A stretch of 64,000 nt of DNA from Ophelia neglecta (taxonomy: Eukaryota). This document shows positions 241 through 61,302 of this stretch, in pieces. The stretch spans positions 79,360,001-79,424,000 of the forward strand of contig OZ260661.1 of assembly GCA_965285935.1 (NCBI GenBank). Reading direction: 5' to 3'. How positions within the stretch are numbered: position 1 is the first letter of the stretch; each line of letters begins with the position of its first letter. Position numbers and translations under genes: made by a program. The notes beneath the pieces were generated by a model, which did not search any database, had not been told where the DNA came from, and saw nothing but the letters and a program-made list of their open reading frames with translations.

Positions 241-830
241 TCACTGCGGCGGTAGCTAGGCGTTCGCGATTCTAAAGAGAGACCAAACAATTCCCTACAA
301 ATACGCAATCCGGCCAAGCAAGCGTTGCTCCATTTTAATCCCTTTCTGAAAACGCCTAATTGGTCACCACTTTTAATTATTTACGTGAATAGTCAACTCG
401 GTCGGGTTGGTCTATTCAATATCTTTCATTAGGTCCATTTTTACAACGTCCATTTTGATTCCAAGTTGGAGCCATTCCCCCTATGTTTTACCGTTACCCT
501 CACTGAGTCCCTTTGCCTTACCTTACATGATACATAAACCTTACCTCTGCCTACCGTGTCCTTGTCCTACCTTGTCCTTTATTTGTGTTTATTTGCTCAG
601 TTTCTATGTTTTTACCTATGTTTATTTTGTTTTCCTATTCTTTGGTCATATGCCACCATCCAGTCTCTATTCTTTCCTCATTCTGACTTATATTCTTGCT
701 TATAGTCTCTTGACCCATAGTCTTTTGCTTATACACTTGTTTTAAATCTTCTTTGCTATTTACTCTTGTTTCATCTGTGTTTCCTGTTTATTATTTTGTA
801 ATCGCTCCTGCTTCATTATACTATGGCTTA

Positions 831-3800
831 CTTACATCCAATCTTTTCTGGCACCATTGTACTACGGCACACTAACATCCGATCACTTCTAGCACCATTG
901 TACTACAGCACACTAACATCCGATCACTTCAAGTTTCATTTTACGACAGCACACTATCATCCGTTCACTTCTAGCACCACTGTACTACAGCACACTAACA
1001 TCCGATCACTTCTAGCACCATTGTACTACAGCACACTAACATCCGATCACTTCTAGCACCATTGTACTACAGCACACTAACATCCGATCACTTCTAGCAC
1101 CACTGTACTACAGCACACTAACATCCGATCACTTCTAGCACCACTGTACTACAGCACTCTAACATCCGATCACTTCTAGCACCACTGTACTACAGCACAC
1201 TAACATCCGATCACTTCTAGCACCATTGTACTACAGCACACTAACATCCGATCACTTCTAGCACCACTGCACCACAGCACACTAACATCCGATCACTTCT
1301 AGCACCATTGTACTACAGCACACTAATATTCGATCACTTCTAGCACCACTGTACTACAGCACACTAACATCCGATCACTTCTAGCACCACTGTACTACAG
1401 CACACTAACATCTGATCACTTCTAGCACCATTGTACTACAGCACACTAACATCCGATCACTTCTAGCACCATTGTACTACAGCACACTAACATCCGATCA
1501 CTTCTAGCACCATTGTACTACAGCACACTAACATCCGATCACTTCTAGCACCACTGTACTACAGAACACTAACATCCGATCACTTCTACCATCAGTGAAC
1601 TACAGCACACTAAAATCCGATCACTTCTAGCACCATTGTACTACAGCACACTAACATCCGATCACTTCTAGCACCACTGTACCACAGCACACTAACATCC
1701 GATCACTTCTAGCACCATTGTACTACAGCACACTAACATCCGATCGCTTCTAGCACCACTATTCTAGCACCACTGTACTACAGAACACTAACATCCGATC
1801 ACTTCTACCATCAGTGAACTACAGCACACTAAAATCCGATCACTTCTAGCACCATTGTACTACAGCACACTAACATCCGATCACTTCTAGCACCACTGCA
1901 CCACAGCACACTAACATCCGATCACTTCTAGCACCATTGTACTACAGCACACTAATATTCGATCACTTCTAGCACCACTGTACTACAGCACACTAACATC
2001 CGATCACTTCTAGCACCACTGTACTACAGCACACTAACATCTGATCACTTCTAGCACCATTGTACTACAGCACACTAACATCCGATCACTTCTAGCACCA
2101 TTGTACTACAGCACACTAACATCCGATCACTTCTAGCACCATTGTACTACAGCACACTAACATCCGATCACTTCTAGCACCACTGTACTACAGAACACTA
2201 ACATCCGATCACTTCTACCATCAGTGAACTACAGCACACTAAAATCCGATCACTTCTAGCACCATTGTACTACAGCACACTAACATCCGATCACTTCTAG
2301 CACCACTGTACCACAGCACACAAACATCCGATCACTTCTAGCACCAGTGTACTACAGCACACTAACATCCGATCACTTCTAGCACCACTGTACTACAGCA
2401 CACTAACATCTGATCACTTCTAGCACCACTGTACTACAGCACTCTAACATCCGATCACTTCTAGCACCATTGTACTACAGCACACTAACATCCGATCACT
2501 TCTAGCACCACTGTACTACAGTACACTAACATCCGATCACTTCTAGCACCATTGTACTACAGCACACTAAAATCCGATCACTTCTAGCACCATTGTACTA
2601 CAGCACACTAACATCCGATCACTTCACGTTCCATTGTACGACAGCACACTATCATCCGATCACTTCTAGCACCACTGTACCACAGCACACTAACATCCGA
2701 TCACTTCTAGCACCACTGCACTACAGCACACTAACATCCGATCACTTCTAGCACCATTGTACTACAGCACACTAACATTCGATCACTTCTAGCACCACTG
2801 TACTACAGCACACTAACATCCGATCACTTCTAGCACCATTGTACTACAGCACACTAACATCCGATCACTTCAAGTTCCATTGTACGACAGCACACTATCA
2901 TCCGATCACTTCTAGCACCACTGTACCACAGCACACTAACATCCGATCACTTCTAGCACCACTGCACTACAGCACACTAACATCCGATCACTTCTAGCAC
3001 CATTGTACTACAGCACACTAACATTCGATCACTTCTAGCACCACTGTACTACAGCACACTAACATCCGATCACTTCTAGCACCACTGTACTACAGCACAC
3101 TAACATCTGATCACTTCTAGCACCACTGTACTACAGCACTCTAACATCCGATCACTTCTAGCACCATTGTACTACAGCACACTAACATCCGATCACTTCT
3201 AGCACCACTGTACTACAGCACACTAACATCCGATCACTTCTAGCACCACTGCACTACAGCACACTAACATCCGATCACTTCTAGCACCATTGTACTACAG
3301 CACACTAACATTCGATCACTTCTAGCACCACTGTACTACAGCACACTAACATCCGATCACTTCTAGCACCATTGTACTACAGCACACTAACATCCGATCA
3401 CTTCAAGTTCCATTGTACTACAGCACACTAACATCCGATCACTTCTAGCACCACTGTACTACAGCACACTAACATCCGATCACTTCTAGCACCAGCATAC
3501 TACAGCACACTAACATCCGATCACTTCTAGCACCATTGTACTACAGCACACTAACATCCGATCACTTCAAGTTCCATTGTACTACAGCACACTAACATCC
3601 GATCACTTCTAGCACCACTGTACCACAGCACACAAACATCCGATCACTTCTAGCACCAGTGTACTACAGCACACTAACATCTGATCACTTCTAGCACCAT
3701 TGTACTACAGCACACTAACATCCGATCACTTCTAGCACCACTGTACTACAGCACACTAACATCTGATCACTTCTAGCACCACTGTACTACAGCACTCTAA

Positions 3801-4448
3801 CATCCGATCACTTCTAGCACCATTGTACTACAGCACACTAACATCCGATCACTTCTAGCACCACTGTACTACAGTACACTAACATCCGATCACTTCTAGC
3901 ACCATTGTACTACAGCACACTAAAATCCGATCACTTCTAGCACCATTGTACTACAGCACACTAACATCCGATCACTTCACGTTCCATTGTACGACAGCAC
4001 ACTATCATCCGATCACTTCTAGCACCACTGTACCACAGCACACTAACATCCGATCACTTCTAGCACCAGTGTACTACAGCACACTAACATCCGATCACTT
4101 CTAGCACCACTGCACTACAGCACACTAACATCCGATCACTTCTAGCACCATTGTACTACAGCACACTAACATTCGATCACTTCTAGCACCACTGTACTAC
4201 AGCACACTAACATCCGATCACTTCTAGCACCATTGTACTACAGCACACTAACATCCGATCACTTCAAGTTCCATTGTACTACAGCACACTAACATCCGAT
4301 CACTTCTAGCACCACTGTACTACAGCACACTAACATCTGATCACTTCTAGCACCATTGTACTACAGCACACTAACATCTGATTACTTCTAGCACCACTGT
4401 ACTACAGCACACTAACATCCGATCACTTCTAGCACCATTGTACTACAG
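831..4448. repeat. 41-bp tandem satellite, ~88 units, consensus TTCTAGCACCAYTGTACTACAGCACACTAACATCCGATCAC
   Basis: Head-to-tail 41-bp period throughout; degenerate first unit at 831-870; one 14-bp insertion near 1761; recurrent diagnostic variants. Confidence 0.98.
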
Positions 4449-4496: not shown

Positions 4497-5409
4497 CAAC
4501 GGGGAAGGTTAATTTAGAGCTTGGACCCGTACAGCGTTTCGATCGTCGAAGTAATCAAGCTTGAATGTCCTAACCGCAACCGAATGCCATAAACCTTTAG
4601 ATAAACTATCACGGTTGTTCCAGGTCACATTGCCTTTAAGAAAACATGCAGCAAAGCATGTTACAAGAAAAATAACATTAGCATACAAATGGGAAGGCTT
4701 GTCGATTTGAAACAACACTGGGACTAAGTGTAAGTTTTATCCCTGCAGGAGTGCTCTACGCCTAGCATGTACTTATCGCTTTTTTTCCCGCCATGCAACC
4801 GGTGTCGGCTGCTTTCAGGATTTGAAGCTTTGGTTTCGAGCGTGTTAATTAGAAATTTATCAGCATGACCACCATTTTTCACGGTCACCATAGGACACAT
4901 CAGTCTCGGTCAGCAAATTAGCCATTCCCTTAAAGTCATTATGAGATACAGGAGTTGCCATTACCTATTTATGCGATCAAAGGGGTAACTGAATAATATT
5001 AGGATAATGGATGTAATGTGTTTTACCATATTGACCGTTCGACTGTCGAAGCTATATTTTGTTGATAATAAAGAAGAAATATTAAATTTAACCTGAATGG
5101 TGGCATTCTGTTGTACATTTGGGAGATAAGCCGCGAAGCCTTGGTCCTGCGGTCGTCTGATTTTGTACAGGCAGGGCCCTAGCCGCTCTCATATGGATGG
5201 TCTACATGCAGTCTTGCAATAATTAGTAAGAGCTGACATTACAAACATCAATGGAGAAAATGTTTGTGTTTTGTATTCAAGTGGAAGTCGGTTTTTTCAT
5301 CAAGGGGCCAGCTAAACCCAAGTAGAATTCGGTCGGATTGTTTTATTTAAATGTGAATTAAATATAATGTATGAAAAAAACCTGTGAAGATTGGCGGATG
5401 TACCATGTA

Positions 5410-5602
5410 CAGTAAAACCTGTGAATTAAGACCACCCAAGCGACTTGAAAATGCTGGCCTGATTATAGAGGTGGTCTGTTTATACAGGTTGTTTTACATT
5501 GAAAATGTATAATATGATCTTCATATTAGTGGTCTGAATTGACAGGTGATCTGAATTGCCAGGTGGTCTTAATAGAGGTGGTCTTTAAGGTAGGTTTCAC
5601 TG
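5410..5602. mobile_element. Tc1/mariner (pogo/Tigger-type) MITE, 193 bp
   Basis: TA|CAGTAAAACCTGTGAATTAAGACCACC ... GGTGGTCTTTAAGGTAGGTTTCACTG|TA: ~27-bp imperfect TIRs starting CAGT, TA on both flanks, internal GGTGGTC subrepeats. Confidence 0.88.
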
Positions 5603-8477: not shown

Positions 8478-8750
8478 TGTGCGTTCGGACTAGACTTTAT
8501 GATCTAGGTGTTCTGATTAGAATAATGTCCTATGCGTTCTGATAAGACTTATGTTCTCTATGTTCTGATAAGACTCATGTTATACGTGATCTGATTAGAC
8601 TGATGTTCTATATGTTCTGATTAGACTTATGTTCTATGTGTTTTGATTAGACTGTTGTTCTATGTGTTTTGATTAGACTGTTGTTCTATGTGTTCTGATT
8701 AGACTGATGATTTGTGTGTTCCGATAAGACTAATGTTCTATGTGTTCTCA
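8478..8750. repeat. 26-bp minisatellite, ~10 units (CTGATTAGACTKATGTTCTATGTGTT)
   Basis: 26-bp periodicity of GATTAGACT...GTTCTATG. Confidence 0.92.
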
Positions 8751-9109
8751 TTTGAAAGAGAAGTGTTCATGAAATCATAGACAAACACATATTTTAAGAT
8801 ATTAGGATGTAAATCTCTAGTTTTATCTCTTTCTGTTTATTTGAATTATGCATGACAAAAATCACCAAATGCTTTAGTCACATGCATTGACTTGCAAAAT
8901 AAATGTGTGTATGTCGTTAATACTACGCGTGAGTAAGCTTCGGGGATGGTACGAATGCCCCCGTCTATCCTCTCAGCCATCTCTCAGTTGAGCTATCCGC
9001 CTACCCCCCCCCCCCCCCTCCCTCGCAGACCGCCGGGCTTGTAAATAATTCTAACCAATTTGAATACACTGCCCATTTGCCAAAGGGATGAAAAGTGACA
9101 CCTATCTTT

Positions 9110-9525: not shown

Positions 9526-10189
9526 ACGTTTTTATTCATAACTACAAGAGCTTCATGCTGTCTACTAAGACAATAAGTCTATACCCTAGACCTACAAAAC
9601 ATGCGAAATAAAATATCATGATCCTAAGAGTTGTTGGGAACCATTTGGCTTATAATTGTCTCTGAAGCTTGGGAATCTGCAGCAAGTGTAATATGAAATA
9701 CCTGTGAACAAAAGGTTTGTCAAATCCACTGGCAAAACCCGAGTTGGAGTGGCAAGAAAAGCTTTCTGCAATGCCGGCTGTCTGAAAAACTCGACGGTCT
9801 CTACATTTATTCTTGGGTAGGTATTTTTTGGTGCTTCGCAGAATTGGCTAGTAGTGGATTCTCTGCTACTTCCGTCTGTTCACGACGCATATTTGACTAA
9901 ACGACTTACAAGCATCAAGATTAATTTACTATAGAACTATAACACCATAGACCGATGTCTCGGCCAGAAACATGTTATATCACTACGTCTAGAAGGATAG
10001 TCTAAATCAAACAACTGTGCAATGTTTTTAAATAATTAAGTATACTTTACATTAGATATATACTTATATCTAAGTATTGATACAATTGAATTAGAACTCA
10101 TTTACAATAATCCTTCTTAATAGTGGTAGACAGGGCAATCCGCCCTGATTCTGTACCGTGGCGTGAGATAACTTTCAAATTTTGGTTCA

Positions 10190-10560
10190 GTTTGAACATT
10201 GGTTATTTCCCTTCAGTCTATGTTTTTTTTTTGTAACGTACACCCTGGTTTCGATTACTTTGCCACTACGGATCATGATTTAGATCACCCCAACTTCTGC
10301 AAAAGAGGGCAGGGAGGAGTTGCCATTCTGCGGAGCAAAACTTGTCTCTTAGAGGAGAAACAAATCCCACTTCGCCTGACAGAATTGTATCGATTCAACT
10401 AGAAACAAGCAAAATACAACCCTCGAGTTACTAAATACTTACCCTCCAGTAATCACGCCTTTAAAGTAATCACCTCTAGATAAAACAATCCCAGTAAGTT
10501 CTATATAAAACAGGCCAAAAGCATTGATATTAAGTATATCATAATGGGGGACACGGAAAC
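10190..10560 (+). mobile_element. Non-LTR retrotransposon AP-endonuclease domain remnant (frameshifted)
   Basis: Motifs in the expected order across frames: EHWLFPFSL, VHPGFDYFA..D.DLD, RGQGGVAIL, YLPSSNH, YIIMGD. Confidence 0.8.
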
Positions 10561-14000: not shown

Positions 14001-14299
14001 TATAGATTGTACCCAATTATTGGCAACTTTTATTTTTCATTAAGCGCGTACATAGGCAGACTCTCAATTTCCACGGTGAATTAACAGACAACCGTATCAT
14101 ACGATAGCTCATTATTCGCTTGTCACAAAAAATGCCTGGCTGGGAAATTGAAATTTCTTTTATTATATTCGCCGATTTGGTTTTTTCCCCAGCGATGACC
14201 CACTTAACCCACTAAAGCTGGGCCTAAATCCCAAATAATCAAATAGACAGCAGGCACCAGTTTCATTGTTTTCCCATAAAAAACAACAGGTATCGGGCT

Positions 14300-15320
14300 A
14301 TACCTCTTCCGTTATACCGATGCTCAAAATGAGCGTATGGAGTGTTTTGGGACAGGCGTATTTGCCTGGAGGACGATACGCTTATCTACAACATATAAAA
14401 AGTCGACAATGAGTGACATGGTTTATATGGAAACAGGGAGAGTTCCCCTGATTTATTTTAGGTATTGCAAAACTATTAAAGTCTGGGCGGAAATGAAAAC
14501 AGGTATTTGTGTGGTAAAGTTTTGTCAGAATATAATAGATTGGTCATTGTTACCACCTGGGAAAATAATGTTAAAAATCTGCTAAATAATATTGACCTCG
14601 GGCACTTATATGACTGTGATTTTGGTAAATTGAGTGTCACCATGTTATACAGAACTGTAAAAAGTAAACTCCTGGCTAGAGCCAAAGCTCAGATTTATAA
14701 CAATGTTTGTAGTAGTAGGAAGTGTATTACGTATAAACTGCTATGCAACGAGGATTGTAAAATGCCAATGTATCATACTTTAGGTGTATCAGTACAAAAT
14801 GTTGTAACTCTCACAAGGTTGTTCACTAGGAATCACAAATTGGCAATTGAAACTGGTGGCTGGACAAACCCTAGGGTTCCTCCCGAGCAAAGAGCTTGCC
14901 TCGTCTGTAATGAAATCGTGGACGAAATGCATTTACTGTTTAGTTGTCCGCTTTATTCTACCTTGCGTGACCACTATGTTGGCGACCTGCTTGTTGACAG
15001 AGATGTCGAGCCTTCTGCTCATAATGCATTATTCTTGGAACTAAGTCGGACGTTAAGACAGTATATAATAAATTCGCAATTTTCATCAGGAAAGCGCTAG
15101 AGGTGCATGCTAGATTGTTCTTATAAATATTCGCAATTTTTCGCTCTTAATTAGAGTTGTATGCTAGATTGCTCCTATAAGTATATGCGATTTTCGCTCT
15201 TAATTAGGGTAACATACTGGATTGTTTAATAAGCTTTTCTTAATTGTTCCAACATATACAAGAATTCATTCATCATTGTAACCTTTATTATTAACCTTTA
15301 TTAACCTTTATTAACCTTTC
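14300..15320 (+). mobile_element. 5'-truncated non-LTR retrotransposon (ORF2 C-terminus with CCHC knuckle, RTE-X-like) plus 3' tail
   Basis: ORFs 14337-14585 and 14507-15100 in overlapping frames: KKSTMSDMVYMETGRVPL, LTRL..NHKLAIETG.W, CLVC...DEMHLLFSCPLYSTLR; 53-54-bp repeats and (TTATTAACCT)n downstream. Confidence 0.88.
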
Positions 15321-24199: not shown

Positions 24200-24726
24200 T
24201 AGATTACATTGTACAGTCAATAGTCTTCTATTACGGAGTGAGGAAAACTTTAAATTTAAAAGGGGGAACATATTTCGCATAGCATTCTGGAAGCTGAATG
24301 CTATGCAATAAAACTTAGATCTACACGTCCGCCGTTTGTTAACTGATCTCCGGCGCCGACAGGAAGCTTATTTTAGCGCACGCGTGCGTATTAATAAAGC
24401 TCATTTGTCGTCTTTTAAATATATAATTATGGCTGTGACAAGCAGTTTCAAATCTGCTCATGCTTACCACTAGATATAAACTTGATTAAAGTTACTTTCT
24501 ATAGTTATTGAATTGGCGTTTTGTTCAATACTGGTCAGGCAAGACGAGTTAATCTTAACTATGATTGTGCATGGAACGGAAGTGTTACCAGCGATGTGGC
24601 TTCTGACACGGAAAGCAACACTCTGGTGGCTTCCAGATAAAGGAGGGTGGGACGAATAAATGTGCAGCTATAATGGGAGTGCGCCTCACTTCGGAACAAG
24701 AATCAGCGGAAAGAACAAAAAGAATA
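24200..24726 (+). mobile_element. Ancient CR1-group LINE RT fossil, 5' part (interrupted by a younger insertion)
   Basis: FKRGN, CDKQF/FKSAH (cf. QFGFR..HS), NLIKVT, TLWWL.D, GR, NGSAPHFGTRISG (cf. NG..S.W..V.SG) in RT order. Confidence 0.55.
24615..24726. repeat. 112-bp direct repeat, copy 1 (putative TSD)
   Basis: Identical to 25600-25711. Confidence 0.97.
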
Positions 24727-25599
24727 TATATTCATTTATTACCTCCATTTTCTGAAGAGTACAGTTACAATAACTGGAACAGTGCATGCATTTGACCGAA
24801 AGTACTAAAAAGCGAACAAAAAATATATAGTGATTATCAACAATATACATAGATTCTAGACAAACCGAGACAAAAAAAAAGCATAGCAAGGATGCAATGC
24901 TAAACTATTAATTGGCAAAAATAAAATGAAACTGGTACACGAGTTTACATTGGGGCAGTTGATATGTAACATCCTGGGAAATGAGCTTAGCATAGAAATG
25001 CATGTATAACAATTGAATTTATCATAAATGTGCATGCATACAAACTTGCAGGTACTATTCCATTATCAGTCCTATATTTACATATAAACATTTACGTACC
25101 TACACAAGCGGCGAGGCCGATATGATGCATTACCACTGACTAATGTTCAAATATAATTAGCGATATCAAAAGCGTCCACGATAACTGAGAGTTACATTCA
25201 GAGTGATACATTGCCTTCGACTACCACATAATATTTGATTTGCACAGGGGACACTGCCATATGTGCAAACCCACCTTATGCTAAGCTAAGATACTCTCTC
25301 TGGCAAATTCAAATCTATCATGGGATTTATTTCTGCCACACAAATTAATGGTCAGGCCCAGTATGTGCAGAACAAGGTCCTTGTCGTCACAGAGCATGAG
25401 ATGTCTCTCGAATTCAACAGGCCAGAGATCCGTAGACAACCAGAATATCTCTCTTTCAGTAACAAAGACAGGGCAGTAGCAAAAGAAATGCACCAACATG
25501 TCATCGTAGTCGCGACTACACAGGTGACAAAGTCCTGAAATGTTGCACGGGACTGCTAACAGGGACGCAAACGAATATAGAGCTCGCCAGTGGACAGTG
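24727..25599 (-). mobile_element. 5'-truncated non-LTR retrotransposon (ORF2 C-terminal CCHC region plus 3' UTR)
   Basis: Open minus frame from ~25599 to 25281: ...CHLCSRDYDDMLVHFFCYCPVFVTEREIFW...DDKDLVLHILG; AT-rich 3' UTR ending AATAAATGAATATA at ~24740-24727. Confidence 0.8.
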
Positions 25600-25711
25600 G
25601 CAACACTCTGGTGGCTTCCAGATAAAGGAGGGTGGGACGAATAAATGTGCAGCTATAATGGGAGTGCGCCTCACTTCGGAACAAGAATCAGCGGAAAGAA
25701 CAAAAAGAATA
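25600..25711. repeat. 112-bp direct repeat, copy 2 (putative TSD)
   Basis: Identical to 24615-24726. Confidence 0.97.
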
Positions 25712-26230
25712 GTAGGATCGTACTACTATTAAAGGGCATAATGATATTTACCTTTGTCAATCACTATAAACAAACAGACGATCAATGCAGTGTATGAATC
25801 TTTATCTGTCACCAAACGCTACATCGACGCACCTTATTAAAATAGACAAGTGGACAAATAAGCACGTTAAGCTGCGATAGCAGTCTATTCTTCCTTCGAT
25901 ATCAATAAGTTGTATTAGTTCCAGCGTTTACAAAATACTGGTCTCACTTAAAATATATAGGAGTAGGTCACATGGCTATAGCCAGAAGGTTGAATGTTTT
26001 AACGTTTAACCGTCACAGTATCAAACATAACCTGAATGATTCCTCAAACTCATCCTTAGCCTATAGGCATCAATTTATAATCTCATATCCATATTTTCAT
26101 GCCAAAAAATGGCCTTTTTGCACCCACATAGATGGGTTCCGCCGGTATCATTATCGGCTATCAAAAGCTTCGAGATAATGGCGAAGACCTCGAGGTACAT
26201 TTATAAAAATCCATTGAAAATTGCATCAAA
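25600..26230 (+). mobile_element. Ancient CR1-group LINE RT fossil, 3' part
   Basis: IVGS..LL..(I)NDI, TDD (cf. ADD), LIKIDKWTNK, KYIGV, RRPRG..IKI (cf. RRLRGD...YKI). Confidence 0.55.
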
Positions 26231-29050: not shown

Positions 29051-29785
29051 AAAGAGAGCTCGAGAGGCCTTGTGGTTCCTTGGTCAAGACTGACATGAAA
29101 GACCATTAGAGGCAAGGCCGGGGTATGGGATTGCTATCACAGTCATCTATAGAGACCTATGTGAAGAGGGCCTAGCATTGCCTTTGTAAACATAGTGCTC
29201 TTGCAGGCAAACAAGCCAAATTAGCAAAGCCAACATTATATTTGAGACAGTTTTGCGTCGGAAAAGAAAGAACGTGCCGAATTAGGGCAGTGGCGGTAGT
29301 GGTACTTGACCAGTTATCATTGGTCTATCTCTCAAGCCATCAGTCAACAATTTAGCAGTCACGGTTTACAATTCGCCCCCTGATTAGCCATATCCGATTT
29401 CCAGTACCGAGGCATCTATTTAATAAGGGGACCTACAATAATTCTCCTGGACGAATCTTCAACCCGTTCCCGGAATCTGTACCGCTGTACCAGTTCATCA
29501 CATGTCCCCACAAAATATATATACCTATACACATGAATGGTATTGCCTGTAGATCACTGAACGAATATGTACAGTGAAACATGTATGCCTTAAAGACCAT
29601 CTCTATAATATGACCAGCATTTTCCACTTCCTTAGGTGCTATCTTTTGACAGGTTTCACTGTACGCCAGATAATCCATGGATGTTAACTAAAGGATTTGG
29701 GGAAAGGGTGAGTCCCTATAGCAGCTATTACTGACAGAGCGATGTGTGATTTACTTGCCCCTGTGTTGGTGTCAGTCTTATACAC

Positions 29786-39293: not shown

Positions 39294-39530
39294 ACAGTTA
39301 CCGTGAACTTCATGGCAAAGTTTACCTCAACTTGACAGTAACCGTTTTCCCCATTTGAAGCTACCGTCTCTGTACTGAATTTGAAACACAGAAAAAGGTA
39401 GACTTTGTACTTCTCTAAACTATATTACTAGTTACCATTTGGACAAGTAAACACATGCTTTTAGTTGTTTAATATAGCGCGCCAGGGACACGGTAACGTG
39501 CAGTTACCGTGTCCAGTTACCGCCGGAGTG
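39294..39530 (+). repeat. Dispersed repeat, copy A, with terminal perfect hairpin
   Basis: Core TACCGTCTCTGTACTGAATTTGAA shared with ~44969 and ~46115; GGACACGGTAAC-gtgca-GTTACCGTGTCC stem-loop at 39486-39514. Confidence 0.7.
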
Positions 39531-39669: not shown

Positions 39670-40412
39670 CGTTGAAGCGCCATAGGCGAGTACAGCTGAC
39701 AATGACACTAACTAGAGCGCCATAAGAGACTACAACTGACAATGACACCATCTAGAACGCCATAATAGACTACAACTGTCAATGACACTATCTAGAGCGC
39801 CATAAGAGACTGCGGCTGTCAATGACACTATCCAGAGCGCCATGAGAGACTACAGCTGACAATGACACTATCTATAGCGCCATAAGAGACTACAGCTGAC
39901 AATGACACTATCTAGACCGCTATAAGAGACTGCGGCTGACAATGACACTATCTTGAGCGCAATAAGAGACTACAGCTGACAATGACACTATCTAGAGCGC
40001 CATAGGCGACTATTGTTAACAATGAAACTATTTAGAGTGTCATAGGAGTCTATAGTTAACAATGACACTACCTAGAGCGCCACAGGCGACTACAGTAGAC
40101 GATGACACTATCTATTGAGCGCCATAGGCGACTATAGTTAATAATGACACTATCTAGAGCGCCATAGGCGACTACAGTAGACAACGACACTATCTAGAGC
40201 GACATAGGAGACTACAGTAAACAACGACACTATCTAGCGCGCCATAGGCGACTATAGTTAACAATGAAACTATCTAGAGCGCCATAGGCGACTAAAGTTA
40301 ACAATGACACTATCTAGATGGCCATAGGCGACTACTGTAGACAATGACACTATCTAGAGCGCCATAGGCGAATATATTTAACAATGACACTACCAGGACC
40401 ATCATAGGCGAG
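39670..40412. repeat. 40-bp minisatellite, ~18 units (TCTAGAGCGCCATARGMGACTACAGYTRACAATGACACTA)
   Basis: 40-bp period; two sequence subtypes in the 5' and 3' halves. Confidence 0.96.
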
Positions 40413-42951: not shown

Positions 42952-43106
42952 AATCGATTTAATCATGATATGATACAGGCTTATAATAAATATGGACTAG
43001 AAATACTGTAAGTCCAGTAAATTTGACGGAAATCGAATTAATCATGATGTGATACAGGCCTATTTATTTGGAGTAGAAATACTGTAACTCCAGTAAATTC
43101 GACGGA
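42952..43106. repeat. ~78-bp tandem repeat (2 visible units) running into the assembly gap
   Basis: AATCGA.TTAATCATGAT.TGATACAGGC...TAGAAATACTGTAA.TCCAGTAAATT.GACGGA at 42952 and 43031. Confidence 0.85.
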
Positions 43107-43272
43107 NNNNNNNNNNNNNNNNNNNNNNNNNNNNNNNNNNNNNNNNNNNNNNNNNNNNNNNNNNNNNNNNNNNNNNNNNNNNNNNNNNNNNNNNNNNNNN
43201 NNNNNNNNNNNNNNNNNNNNNNNNNNNNNNNNNNNNNNNNNNNNNNNNNNNNNNNNNNNNNNNNNNNNNNNN
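43107..43272. other. Assembly gap (166 N)
   Basis: Run of N. Confidence 1.
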
Positions 43273-46089: not shown

Positions 46090-46340
46090 GTGAACGGTAT
46101 CTCATCTTGACTATTACCGTCTCTGTTTTGAATTTGAATTACAACAAAGGGTGGACTTATTACTTCTTTAAACAATATCACGTGATACAATATGGCTATC
46201 GAAAGACATGCACTCAGTTATATTAAAGAATCATGTGCATATCTGTGAAAAATCAGGCGAAGTAATTATGCAAAAATATAGCGGCTTGCCATGAAGGAAG
46301 CGGTATCTTCTGCTGCCGTGCTCAGTGGTGCGGGAGTGCA
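46090..46340 (+). repeat. Dispersed repeat, copy C
   Basis: TTACCGTCTCTGTTTTGAATTTGAA..ACAAAGGGTGGACTT..TACTTCTTTAAAC...AATATAGCG..GCCA...CGGTA...GGAGTG collinear with copy A. Confidence 0.7.
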
Positions 46341-48101: not shown

Positions 48102-51100
48102 TTTGTTCATTCGAGTCTGACTTATCATATACAATGCAATAATATATTCATTTCAAAACATGTCTCCTCATGCAAGAGCGTATCAACAAAACCACACACC
48201 TACCTAAGGGCTGTGCTAGAAGCAAAACTATCATTTAAACGAGCACGTCATGTTAGTACAATGAACCTTGAGTATGTGCGCTTAACTTGGGACCATAAAA
48301 ACGGATGGAACCAAGTACGAGGTAGATGTGGAGGTGTTTCTTTGCAATACAAATATATAAATATGCACAGTGTTGTGAATGTAAATGTGACGATGTTTCG
48401 TTTCGTATAGCTTTCAAAATCATCTGTTGTGTAGGAATAGTTTTACACTCAGTCTGTTTAAAACTTAGTTCTCCTTGTATCACCCTGCAGCTTTATTTTA
48501 ATAATTTCTGATCCGATGGTTTATATGTTTATATATAGATATTCAAAACATTTATACGACAGGTATAACCCTATCTTGCTCTGTGGTCCCTTTTTACATC
48601 TTAATTGATTTAAAGCCTTTCATGGTTCTTTCTGATTTAGTTTTTGTGCTTACAAAAAGTCCCTATAGTATCTCCTTGTGCTTAAACCGGAAGTCTCTGT
48701 ATAGATGCCAAGTTCGAATCATCAATCATGGCTCTTGTTTGCCAATCAGGAGTGGCGTGAATCACTCGAGCGTAAGCTGAATTCACCACGAACCTGCACT
48801 CGATTAGCATTCATAAACGGTATCGGAATCTTGAAAGGCCTCTTCGTGCAAGAAATTTATCACGAATCCTTTTATTCGTTTTGGTTTATGACTCCCATTG
48901 CTGAATCATATTTGGGCGCTATATATGATCGGCCTAGTAATGTATCTGAACTGACTGGAATGCTAATTTGATATAAAGTTACAATACCCTTTAGGGTTGT
49001 TTTGTCATGCATGTTTTGAAATCCGATTTTAACATTTCAAAGACTACTTCCGTTTGTGACTACTACAGTACGTATAACTACTCGGCTTGCAGAAACTAGG
49101 CAAATAATGAAAAGTAAAATGGCTAGCTAGTAGCCAGTTACCGCCATTTGAAATCTGGGTTCATTCAGCTTGTAAAAATGAAATACCCAGGTCACATGAT
49201 GTAATGTTGGCATCCAAAGTTTGTTGTACATAATATGAAGGGTTTGTCCTGTGTATTTGGGAAGTAGAGCGCTATGTGGATTGGATTTTTTGCCTCACAA
49301 ATCATAGCTTCACACTGTGGTAGACTTGGTGCATTGTGTTTAAATGAAAACCGCCATTAAACATTCGCACAACATCTGTGCCTTGCTGTAGAATCACTGG
49401 TGTTCAATATTAAAAACAATTTTGGTTCATCTTACGCAATGTTACTTGTTCTTTTACCAACAAGCTCTCGCAAAACCGGCAGGATGAGAGTACTTCGTCG
49501 TGTTCGTAAAGTATTCATTAATATCGGTGTATTGCTACTCCAGTTAATGGTTCTCGTTAATGGTCTGTTGACATTTATCAGACTAACCATTATCTGTACA
49601 ATCTTTTAAATTAGTATCGCTATAATATTATTTAGACATTATAACGTGCTGGCGTGTAGACAAGAAATAATGAGATTTACCCAGCACCTGCTGAAGAAGA
49701 GTGAAAAACAATGCCATTAAGATATTAATCCTATTTCGGGTTACACGCACTTTCTTCTTTACGAGCATTGTAGCTAAAGTTACCCCCTGGTGTCTTTTCT
49801 GGTAGAAACTCACTCCGCCTGCAGCAGCCTTCGGCGGATTGCTTTTTGTTTGCCATAAATTAAGTCGTTCTATTTAAGTTCTTATAATTAAACAGCACAT
49901 GTGTTGAGTCACAATTTCAGGCGGGCAATCCTCATCCCCAATTCTTGATTATTTACTTAAAGCAAACTAGGAAAGTTTTTGCTTTTTTTTTCTTTCCAAA
50001 CAAAGTTTATGTCCTCAACGAATGATGCTTTAGAATATTTAGCGCACATCTGCTGCTTAACTTAACTGCTGACTATAATATTTTCAATCAATCGTTGATT
50101 TACGTTGAATTGATTAATTGATTGTTTAATTAAGGAAAAACTTCAAAAGAATATAATTTATTTTCAGACAAAGAATTCACCCTGTCTGGAGCGAGAACTG
50201 ACCCCGCAGTCACATCTTAGCTGGTAACCTAAAACTTCTCAAGGGTTTCGACATGTTTTGCTACCTTTTTGCGCTGGAATAAAACAACTACTTCAACACA
50301 GCCAAATGAATGGGTCTACATCACCAAGTACATAGCTAGTGTGTGATTGATCGAATTGGGTATATTCTGTGTTACTACAAGGTGAAATTACTTACAACGA
50401 GAAACGCGTAGTTAGCATAGAATACGAGCAAGACAGGGATGCCAGTATAATAGAGAGTTTACATTTTTCTGACGTGTTCGTGCGCTACATGAGCGGCCCA
50501 TCTTGCCAGGCTATAAAATCTGAACAATGTTCCTCTGTAGGTGTCATTTTTGCCTTAAACAATTTAACATGTGTTCTGTTTGCATAAAGTTGGTGTTTTT
50601 GCCAGACGTTCGCTCTGACAGCAATTTTAAAACGCAAATGTTAGTTAGAAGCGTGTAAATGAAGACTTTAGTTAACACCTGGTCCACTATATACTCACAG
50701 AACGTTCATTCTGAGTTTAGATATATGATGCTCGTTTTCCATGCAAATTATTGCAGAATTTACAAGTACATACGTGAAGTTCATAATCTTTGAATACCAC
50801 AGCGAACCAGACGAAAACACTTTGAGTCTCAACATATATTGGCCCTTATATATACTTATACCACACGTATCGGCTCTTTATATAAATCAAATTCTTTTTT
50901 AATATAATTCAGTCCAATTCAAATTATGTTTATATACAAAATTTATATAATATACTAGATCGCGACATAACCACAATATTAATGACCACTCTCAATCAGT
51001 GATTTAGCAGGACAATTGGGAATGGGCATCAACCGAGCAAACCAAGTGACATGTATGTGCTTGATCTTAAATGGAGTTCCTGTATTGTCTTGCAAAACAC

Positions 51101-51559
51101 AAATCGCTAGCAGATGAGTTTTTCTACCTGAGTGGCATCGAGAGAGGATTTTGTTCCTTTGATTGTGAGCAGGAACCCAACAAGTGTTTCCTCTTGTGAC
51201 ACCGAGAAAAGCATTACATTAAGGCGCAACTCCAATGTGCTAATTCTTCATATACATGTATATACGGACCAAATCACCATGGACGAGAAGAGTGCTCATA
51301 CTCTTTCAGGAAAGAATCGCTTTCGGTCACCTCACTTCCATATAAGTCGGTGATGTTTATGATGTCACAAAGATATTACAACGCAATTTGATTGTGAAGT
51401 CATGATGGCCGCCGAAAATCCTTATTACTCACGTACATATCTGTGAGTGCTGCTTCTTGTCTTTCCCAATAACACATGCTTGTATCTCGCGGGAAGCATC
51501 TCAATTTCCAGTCTAACTAACCAACACTTAGCACTAAAAGCAATCATACACTGGAGGTT

Positions 51560-61013: not shown

Positions 61014-61302
61014 TCGCCTCTCTGGCCTCCGTCCATCCAAGTGGAAAGTGAGTCGTCTCTATATAGCCTCCGCCCATCCAAGTGGCAAGTGAGTCGTCTC
61101 TATAGCTTCCACCCATCCAAGTGGCAAGTGAGTCGTCTCTATAGCCTCCGCCCATCCAAGTGGAAAGTGAGTCGTCTCTATAGCCTCCGCCCATCCAAGT
61201 GGCAAGTTAGTCGTCTCTGTAGCCTCCGCCCATCCAAGTGGAAAGTGAGTCGTCTCTATAGCCTCCGCCCATCCAAGAGGCAGACGAGTTATCTCCGTCC
61301 AT
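61014..61302. repeat. 39-bp minisatellite, ~7 units (AGCCTCCGCCCATCCAAGTGGMAAGTGAGTCGTCTCTAT)
   Basis: 39-bp period; explains the 13-aa periodic ORFs on both strands. Confidence 0.96.

Follow-up and report, generated by a model that had tools for sequence, protein, structure and literature searches.

How did two identical 112-bp sequences come to lie at both ends of a short LINE fragment, and does the answer concern this one insertion or the whole family to which it belongs? The fragment lies in a window of 64 kb (the whole stretch of DNA analysed) that has the appearance of animal DNA poor in genes, with about 39% GC, satellites and LINE remnants. Of its 182 ORFs of at least 62 aa, the 150 longest were compared with Pfam, and none gave a convincing match that would provide a host gene context; the two ORFs with any Pfam match were low-complexity and under the cut-off. 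The initial annotation had described two 112-bp direct repeats, and these proved to be exact and 100% identical:

24615..24726, no strand assigned: repeat copy 1, likely target-site duplication (TSD), adjoining the 3' end of the element and 100% identical to copy 2
25600..25711, no strand assigned: repeat copy 2, adjoining the 5' truncation point and identical to copy 1

Comparison within the window gave 112 identical positions out of 112, and no extension of the match was possible on either side. Both copies touch the 873-bp insert without a spacer. The next-longest exact dispersed match in the window, tandem arrays excluded, is only 20 nt, so the pair is not a product of chance. We found no further copy of the repeat or of the insert elsewhere in the window. 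With 0 mismatches in 112 positions, the upper bound on divergence is 2.6% (95%), and the duplication is therefore young, if real; the recent event proposed earlier is to this extent borne out. The GC content of the repeat (0.46) equals that of the ORF part of the insert, while the flanks have 0.40 and 0.36.

The insert itself occupies 24727-25599 (873 bp) between the two copies and has the following parts:

25284..25598, minus strand: C-terminal 105 codons of ORF2, 5'-truncated (phmmer, domains of relatives, profile matches)
25473..25529, minus strand: CCHC zinc knuckle, C-x2-C-x9-H-x4-C, with the C, C, H and C columns conserved in the alignment of relatives
25281..25283, minus strand: TAG closing the open frame (sequence)
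24727..25280, minus strand: putative 3' UTR, 554 nt, 35% GC, so called from its position between the ORF2 stop and AATAAA
24727..24740, minus strand: 3' terminus, AATAAA at 24740-24735 and then an 8-nt AT-rich end

For an exhaustive phmmer search, we used the 123-aa frame from stop to stop, in which the first 18 residues are encoded by the repeat; nine proteins were found at E <= 1e-3 (best 2.4e-6, 30-42% identity). Two of them, one being P0005, carry an RVT_1 domain. None of the nine matches starts before query residue 19, which corresponds to 25598 and is the first codon of the insert, and none reaches into the repeat. Homology thus begins at the junction, which shows that the insert is 5'-truncated. 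Its RT and endonuclease domains were lost by the truncation, and the remaining C-terminus matches proteins with RVT_1 and Exo_endo_phos. Pfam recovered zf-RVT alone on the insert, below threshold (E 0.11), and a word-indexed protein search with the insert gave no match. Across the window, profiles of the relatives matched strongly only at the insert, with an iE of 4.4e-10 for 120 long proteins and of 1.5e-16 for the 61 closest, a set that includes the nine proteins found with the query itself.

When P0005 was used as query, 146 relatives were found at E <= 1e-30, and RVT_1 is present in all 120 among the matches listed. Full-length relatives have about 1,140-1,200 aa, with an APE endonuclease and a C-terminal CCHC. 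We saw no endonuclease other than the APE type in their Pfam lists, and no RLE motif after the CCHC either in the insert sequence or among the Pfam domains of the relatives. The minus-strand, 5'-truncated LINE end of the initial annotation is borne out by this homology (phmmer, RVT_1 and APE in the relatives, profiles), and its CCHC knuckle and AATAAA are both there on the minus strand, at 25529-25473 and 24740-24735. Judged by homology, the insert is the 5'-truncated 3' end of a LINE with a predicted APE endonuclease and RT.

At the 3' side, the distance from the first Cys is 82 aa to the TAG and 102 aa to the following stop; in 52 of 54 relatives, 84-113 aa separate the first Cys from the end. 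The profile match on the insert runs to 25245, and the TAG at 25283-25281 may be a natural stop or a nonsense change. The putative 3' UTR has no Rfam match at gathering level, and its last 100 nt fold no better than shuffled sequences (z 0.12). At the 3' junction, the AT-rich terminal bases continue into the T/A bases at the start of the repeat. AATAAA and the AT-rich end, seen in a single copy, would represent the true 3' end of the family.

Two identical sequences could also have been written by the assembler. A heterozygous insertion with a short TSD, or with none, may have been merged with the empty haplotype in gap closing, so that the same 112 bp appear twice. Such an artefact would fit the perfect identity and a repeat length near that of short reads. 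It would also fit the sized gap of 166 N at 43107-43272, which tells us that the sequence was scaffolded. Against it, neither junction contains an N, and the 3' junction, where the AT-rich tail runs into like bases of the repeat, is of the kind that TPRT leaves. Moreover, a 3.6-kb array of diverged 41-bp units was assembled through, which suggests long reads or Sanger data. We consider an artefact highly doubtful.

To which LINE clade does the insert belong? In an atlas search, P0005 matched unnamed RVT_1 clusters only. A bivalve TE survey (PMC10294476, excerpted) contains an RT alignment, from which we chose by eye seven entries with the motifs of the relatives, namely the single match for one motif and six of the eight entries shown for two others. 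All seven are labelled as RTE superfamily, Proto2 clade; their RepeatMasker type is Proto2 in five cases and RTE-X in two, and the name "Proto2" is absent from one library file of the same survey, in the parts covered. In a tree of 29 RT rows, none of them a labelled reference, the relatives cluster by themselves in a group of 15 rows (93/97), and no branch joining them with the pair L006/L008, which resembles Proto2, or with P0128, which resembles RTEX, is supported; eight of the 22 proteins chosen for this tree were dropped as they were without the cut motif. From their sequences, the relatives likely belong to the RTE superfamily, as Proto2/RTE-X-like elements. They resemble the Proto2/RTE-X-like LINEs of marine invertebrates in the excerpted survey (PMC10294476) in having an ORF2 with APE, RT and CCHC, whereas the insert itself retains neither RT nor endonuclease and shares 30-42% identity with its nearest relatives.

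We then turned to the repeat. The initial annotation had presented it as proven target DNA because, on the plus strand, it would lie inside an older RT:

24255..25965, plus strand: stretch proposed to be an older CR1-type RT fossil, which the tests did not confirm (Pfam, profile and frameshift-aware)

Most of the motifs on which this reading was based are present as letters: FKRG at 24255, DKQF at 24437, TLWWL at 24618, NGS and ISG, and further downstream DD and KYIGV at 25951. "INDI" itself is absent, and only NDI (25740) can be read. A corresponding RT did not emerge above background with Pfam or with frameshift-aware profiles. Pfam RT families matched in none of the six frames and in none of 11 short pieces with stops read as X, and HMMER with profiles of the insert's relatives gave no RT fossil signal in the region. 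In frameshift-aware comparison, the modelled empty site scored 17.4 bits against the RT profile of the relatives (200 nulls, mean 16.2, maximum 22.9). Against a CR1/I-like profile made from only six sequences, the RTs of fetched loci, 169, 145 and 87 of 200 nulls were as good at three gap settings; the null segments of these two tests overlap by half. With the same CR1/I-like profile, 1227 of 2000 nulls were as good as the repeat alone and 344 of 500 as good as the downstream flank. Decay-aware codon scoring of the claimed fossil was equalled by 45 and 46 of 120 nulls. As a control, a simulated fossil was found in 18-19 of 20 trials at 20% substitutions and in 4-8 of 20 at 30%, and a fossil decayed by at least 30% would usually be missed by these tests.

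The spacing of the letters was compared by hand with a CR1-looking row of the excerpted alignment (PMC10294476), taken as such by its appearance and not by its label. Counted back from the Trp, FKRG is about 121 and DKQF about 61 codons away; the corresponding distances in that row are 62 and 26, so that both motifs are about twice too distant. In favour of a fossil, the W-NG-SG spacing within the repeat (16, 27) is that of the same row (PMC10294476), and NDI, DD, IDKW and KYIGV follow downstream in the right order. A plus-strand CR1 RT fossil is unsupported, and the data are still compatible with a very old one. As the fossil is undetectable, the earlier proof that the repeat is target DNA fails. 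An older Proto2 copy on the same strand was also considered as the target and rejected, the flank after copy 1 having no ORF2 continuation (64 of 300 nulls as good). Separately, a weak match to where the relatives' RT begins lies in the left flank, at 24360-24562 on the minus strand; its 23.2 bits are just above the maximum of 200 nulls (22.9), it is not collinear with the insert, and it is probably due to chance.

TRIM and LTR elements likewise consist of two direct repeats, of about 100 bp, around a short interior. We rejected this class for the locus: the termini are not TG..CA, no 4-6-bp TSD lies outside the whole unit, and the interior is a LINE 3' end. The previous statement that the repeat is not an LTR therefore stands on other grounds, those of the termini, the missing outer duplication and the non-LTR type of the insert. 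Readings of the locus as a tRNA or an Rfam family were dropped as well, with no supporting match; the window contains no tRNA gene.

The repeat could also belong to the element. The locus would then hold a 985-bp copy (repeat plus insert) whose first 112 nt were duplicated behind its tail. This might have come about through internal priming and a subsequent end-to-end template jump, through a circular intermediate that integrated, or through a partial tandem duplication. In the ORF2 frame, the repeat contains two stops, in agreement with the initial annotation. Scored as upstream ORF2, it reaches 12.4 bits, whereas 49 relatives have a median of 42.1 and only one of them is lower; less weight attaches to this result, since the first 24 residues of the insert itself likewise score lower than all 49. 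The part of the repeat next to the 5' junction is more suggestive:

25600..25635, minus strand: junction-proximal 36 nt of the repeat with P-S-x-x-W-K, suggestive only (profile tests)

One base off the ORF2 frame, these last 12 codons read P-S-x-x-W-K, in register with the motif of the relatives and at the expected distance from the CCHC knuckle. The same shifted frame is stop-free over all 37 codons of the repeat, and the ORF-like GC content would also suit an element-derived sequence. With the shift left free, the in-register likeness to upstream ORF2 was equalled by 7 of 4872 nulls, and in a further test by 5-28 of 1000. Profiles split in four and compared in loose register gave 401, 168, 3 and 704 of 3000 nulls; the third sub-profile is significant, which favours an element-derived repeat, and the other three are not, which speaks against it. 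The same origin requires a one-base frameshift at or near the junction, and when this is penalised the gain is 0.4 bits, with 154 of 400 nulls as good. In addition, the likeness stops at 36 nt, with no ORF2 signal beyond them or in 600 nt of upstream DNA, and no short TSD surrounds the whole unit. The motif was moreover noticed by eye before the tests were designed. We regard an origin of the repeat within the element as decidedly unlikely. The likeness itself is a hint: it may have arisen by chance, have been left by homology-guided 5' joining, or indicate that the repeat comes from the element.

Our preferred reading is that a copy of an APE-type LINE, young and 5'-truncated and of Proto2/RTE-X-like kind within the RTE superfamily, was inserted by TPRT into what would have been a single copy of the 112 bp, and that its genuine, atypically long TSD is a minority outcome. 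We hold this to be probable, with modest confidence; this grade and those of the alternatives are judgements and not computed values. According to TPRT biology and the junction sequence, the endonuclease would have nicked the plus strand at the right end of the 112-bp stretch, then present only once, and the RNA's AT-rich terminus would have paired with the A/T-rich primer end. Synthesis of cDNA would have halted after 873 nt and so produced the 5' truncation, in line with the start of homology at the junction. On the opposite strand, the opening would have occurred at a distance of 112 nt rather than 7-20 nt, most likely through a remote nick or through host repair of a stalled intermediate, perhaps aided by the imperfect similarity between the last ~36 nt of the repeat and the cDNA. 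Fill-in would have copied the 112 nt, giving the two identical copies observed at the two ends.

The endonuclease might have had no part in the event. In that case, LINE cDNA or a genomic LINE end would have been patched into a break or a stalled fork, and repair synthesis would have duplicated the 112 bp. Altered repair is known to yield long duplications (PMC5223499, excerpted). The T run that excerpts of PMC6007223 describe for RTE-clade targets, roughly 10 nt upstream of where the first nick falls, is missing at the locus, and no target-site consensus of the family speaks for endonuclease use here. However, the T-run signature is described there (PMC6007223) for RTE proper, not for Proto2. 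The insert also ends directly after AATAAA, as priming at the RNA 3' end predicts. We find an endonuclease-independent event very improbable.

Long flanking repeats occur at some copies of C. elegans RTE-1, and the endonuclease of the rotifer element R9 is of the RLE type. Our literature search did not find the claim of long TSDs for C. elegans RTE-1. The papers cited below were available in excerpts. Among 53 copies of RTE-1, 30 TSDs of 10-49 bp are given, so that in this element, of the RTE superfamily like, probably, the relatives of the insert, TSDs are not uniformly long; for the RTE clade, they are mostly 7-15 bp (PMC6007223). More generally, LINE TSDs have been said to measure between several and several hundred nucleotides (PMC1291365). 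In wild-type cells, one of 25 insertions of the zebrafish ZfL2-2 had a TSD of 1228 bp (PMC2666801). L1 TSDs of more than 100 bp, ascribed to a distant second nick, account for as many as 10% of the events in HeLa and for 57-91% of those in NER-deficient cells (PMC5223499), and extremely long ones are associated with 5'-truncated L1 (PMC2912911). In the excerpts of PMC7846101, PMC11203168, PMC4408412, PMC2887409 and PMC2861651, nothing on long TSDs was found.

As in the long-TSD insertions of human L1 and ZfL2-2, the element here is APE-type and 5'-truncated, with a duplication of more than 100 bp as a minority outcome. Those cases mostly concern engineered elements in cultured cells, whereas here the insertion is apparently natural, from another superfamily and in the assembly of an invertebrate. 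In all likelihood, the family is otherwise ordinary and the long TSD one of its minority outcomes. The initial annotation had gone further and proposed a family that duplicates host DNA at each insertion. This is more than one copy can tell and overreaches, because ordinary LINEs are known to produce long duplications in a minority of cases (PMC2666801, PMC5223499, both excerpted). As a single event, the locus is a tidy natural example of this outcome and changes little.

Family-wide duplication nevertheless has precedents. In the excerpts of PMC9977147, R9 of rotifers has a TSD of 126 bp as a family trait, which agrees with its earlier mention as a long-TSD element. Over half the Dualen-4b insertions of Chlamydomonas have a TSD above 50 bp, with a median of 900 bp, and the Dualen endonucleases are RLE plus APE (PMC9977147). 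Dualen was not among the elements named in the initial annotation. In the literature covered, family-wide long TSDs are those of R9 and Dualen. Both R9 and Dualen-4b share with the present locus a TSD of at least 100 bp around a non-LTR element. In both, the long TSD is a trait of the family, whereas the present locus is known from one copy; R9 is specific to rDNA, Dualen combines RLE with APE, and no RLE motif follows the CCHC in our insert.

On this basis, the TSD could be genuine and typical of its family, an active, APE-only, Proto2-like LINE family of a marine invertebrate that would duplicate about 100 bp or more of host DNA per insertion, the second cut being widely staggered or left to the host. 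The sole copy seen does have a 112-bp duplication, and the precedents are those just given (126 bp for R9, median of 900 bp for Dualen-4b; PMC9977147). TSD searches in genome surveys are limited to 30 bp (PMC2912911) or 49 bp (PMC6007223) in the excerpted parts, so that a long-TSD family could be overlooked. Our search, with subscription journals and Repbase Reports outside its scope, found no study of Proto2 TSDs and no published TSD lengths for Proto2 or RTEX. On the other side, this single copy was chosen for its oddness, the usual 7-15 bp of the RTE clade (PMC6007223) is far from such a trait, and none of 12 LINE blocks in fetched loci showed such a repeat, which weighs weakly. R9 and Dualen use RLE, unlike the APE-only family of the insert. 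We judge a family trait of this kind unlikely. If duplication were routine, second-strand opening would possibly be left to the host and the 5' end joined at imperfect homology between cDNA and target.

How the second strand is cleaved and how the 5' end is joined are the parts of LINE integration that are understood least. If long TSDs were family-wide, an APE-only family would offer a direct way of studying what determines the second cut. Such a family would also generate small host duplications steadily, and its insertions would be able to loop out by recombination between their own flanks, a possibility raised in PMC5223499 (excerpted).

The fetched loci came from a scan of a genome collection (GTDB set), which gave 20 loci in all, host-like LINEs in bacterial assemblies and one group II intron; none was a member of the insert's own family. 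No near-identical bracketing repeat was present at any of the 12 LINE blocks in the eight loci fetched. These are distant relatives and several are without a flank, so this count says little about the family of the insert. Only dispersed repeats of 80%, kilobases away, were seen at L006; L008 ends in AATAAA plus (ATT)n. L001-L018 and L020 hold eukaryote-type LINE RTs (Proto2-, RTE-, I- and CR1-like) inside bacterial genome records, apparently host DNA binned into the assemblies.

The window contains other LINE remnants. A second, unrelated LINE 3' end lies at 14280-15320 on the plus strand, with a C-terminus carrying an IETG motif and CCHC, a 54-bp duplicated UTR piece and a (TTATTAACCT)n tail. 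Its protein matched P0128 only, a 1131-aa EN+RT ORF2 that is RTEX-like by eye, and no flank match above 9 nt was found around it in the ranges searched. At 10167-10560 (plus strand), a decayed N-terminal endonuclease remnant (EHWL, RGQGGVA) belongs to the same Proto2-like superfamily as the insert. Finally, 50912-51142 on the minus strand weakly matches the post-RT region of the relatives' profile (iE 0.005, 26.4 bits) and is a possible further remnant.

Among the other repeats of the window, the largest is a strongly C-skewed satellite of 3.6 kb at 830-4448, with 88 copies of a 41-bp unit and 91% matches. Minisatellites occupy 39676-40392 (40 bp), 8483-8752 (26 bp) and 61014-61282 (39 bp), and two diverged 76-bp tandem units at 42952-43272 run into the gap of 166 N. 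Two old dispersed pairs are also present, one direct at 74% (39362-39466 and 46115-46219) and one inverted at 77% (5407-5477 and 29594-29664).
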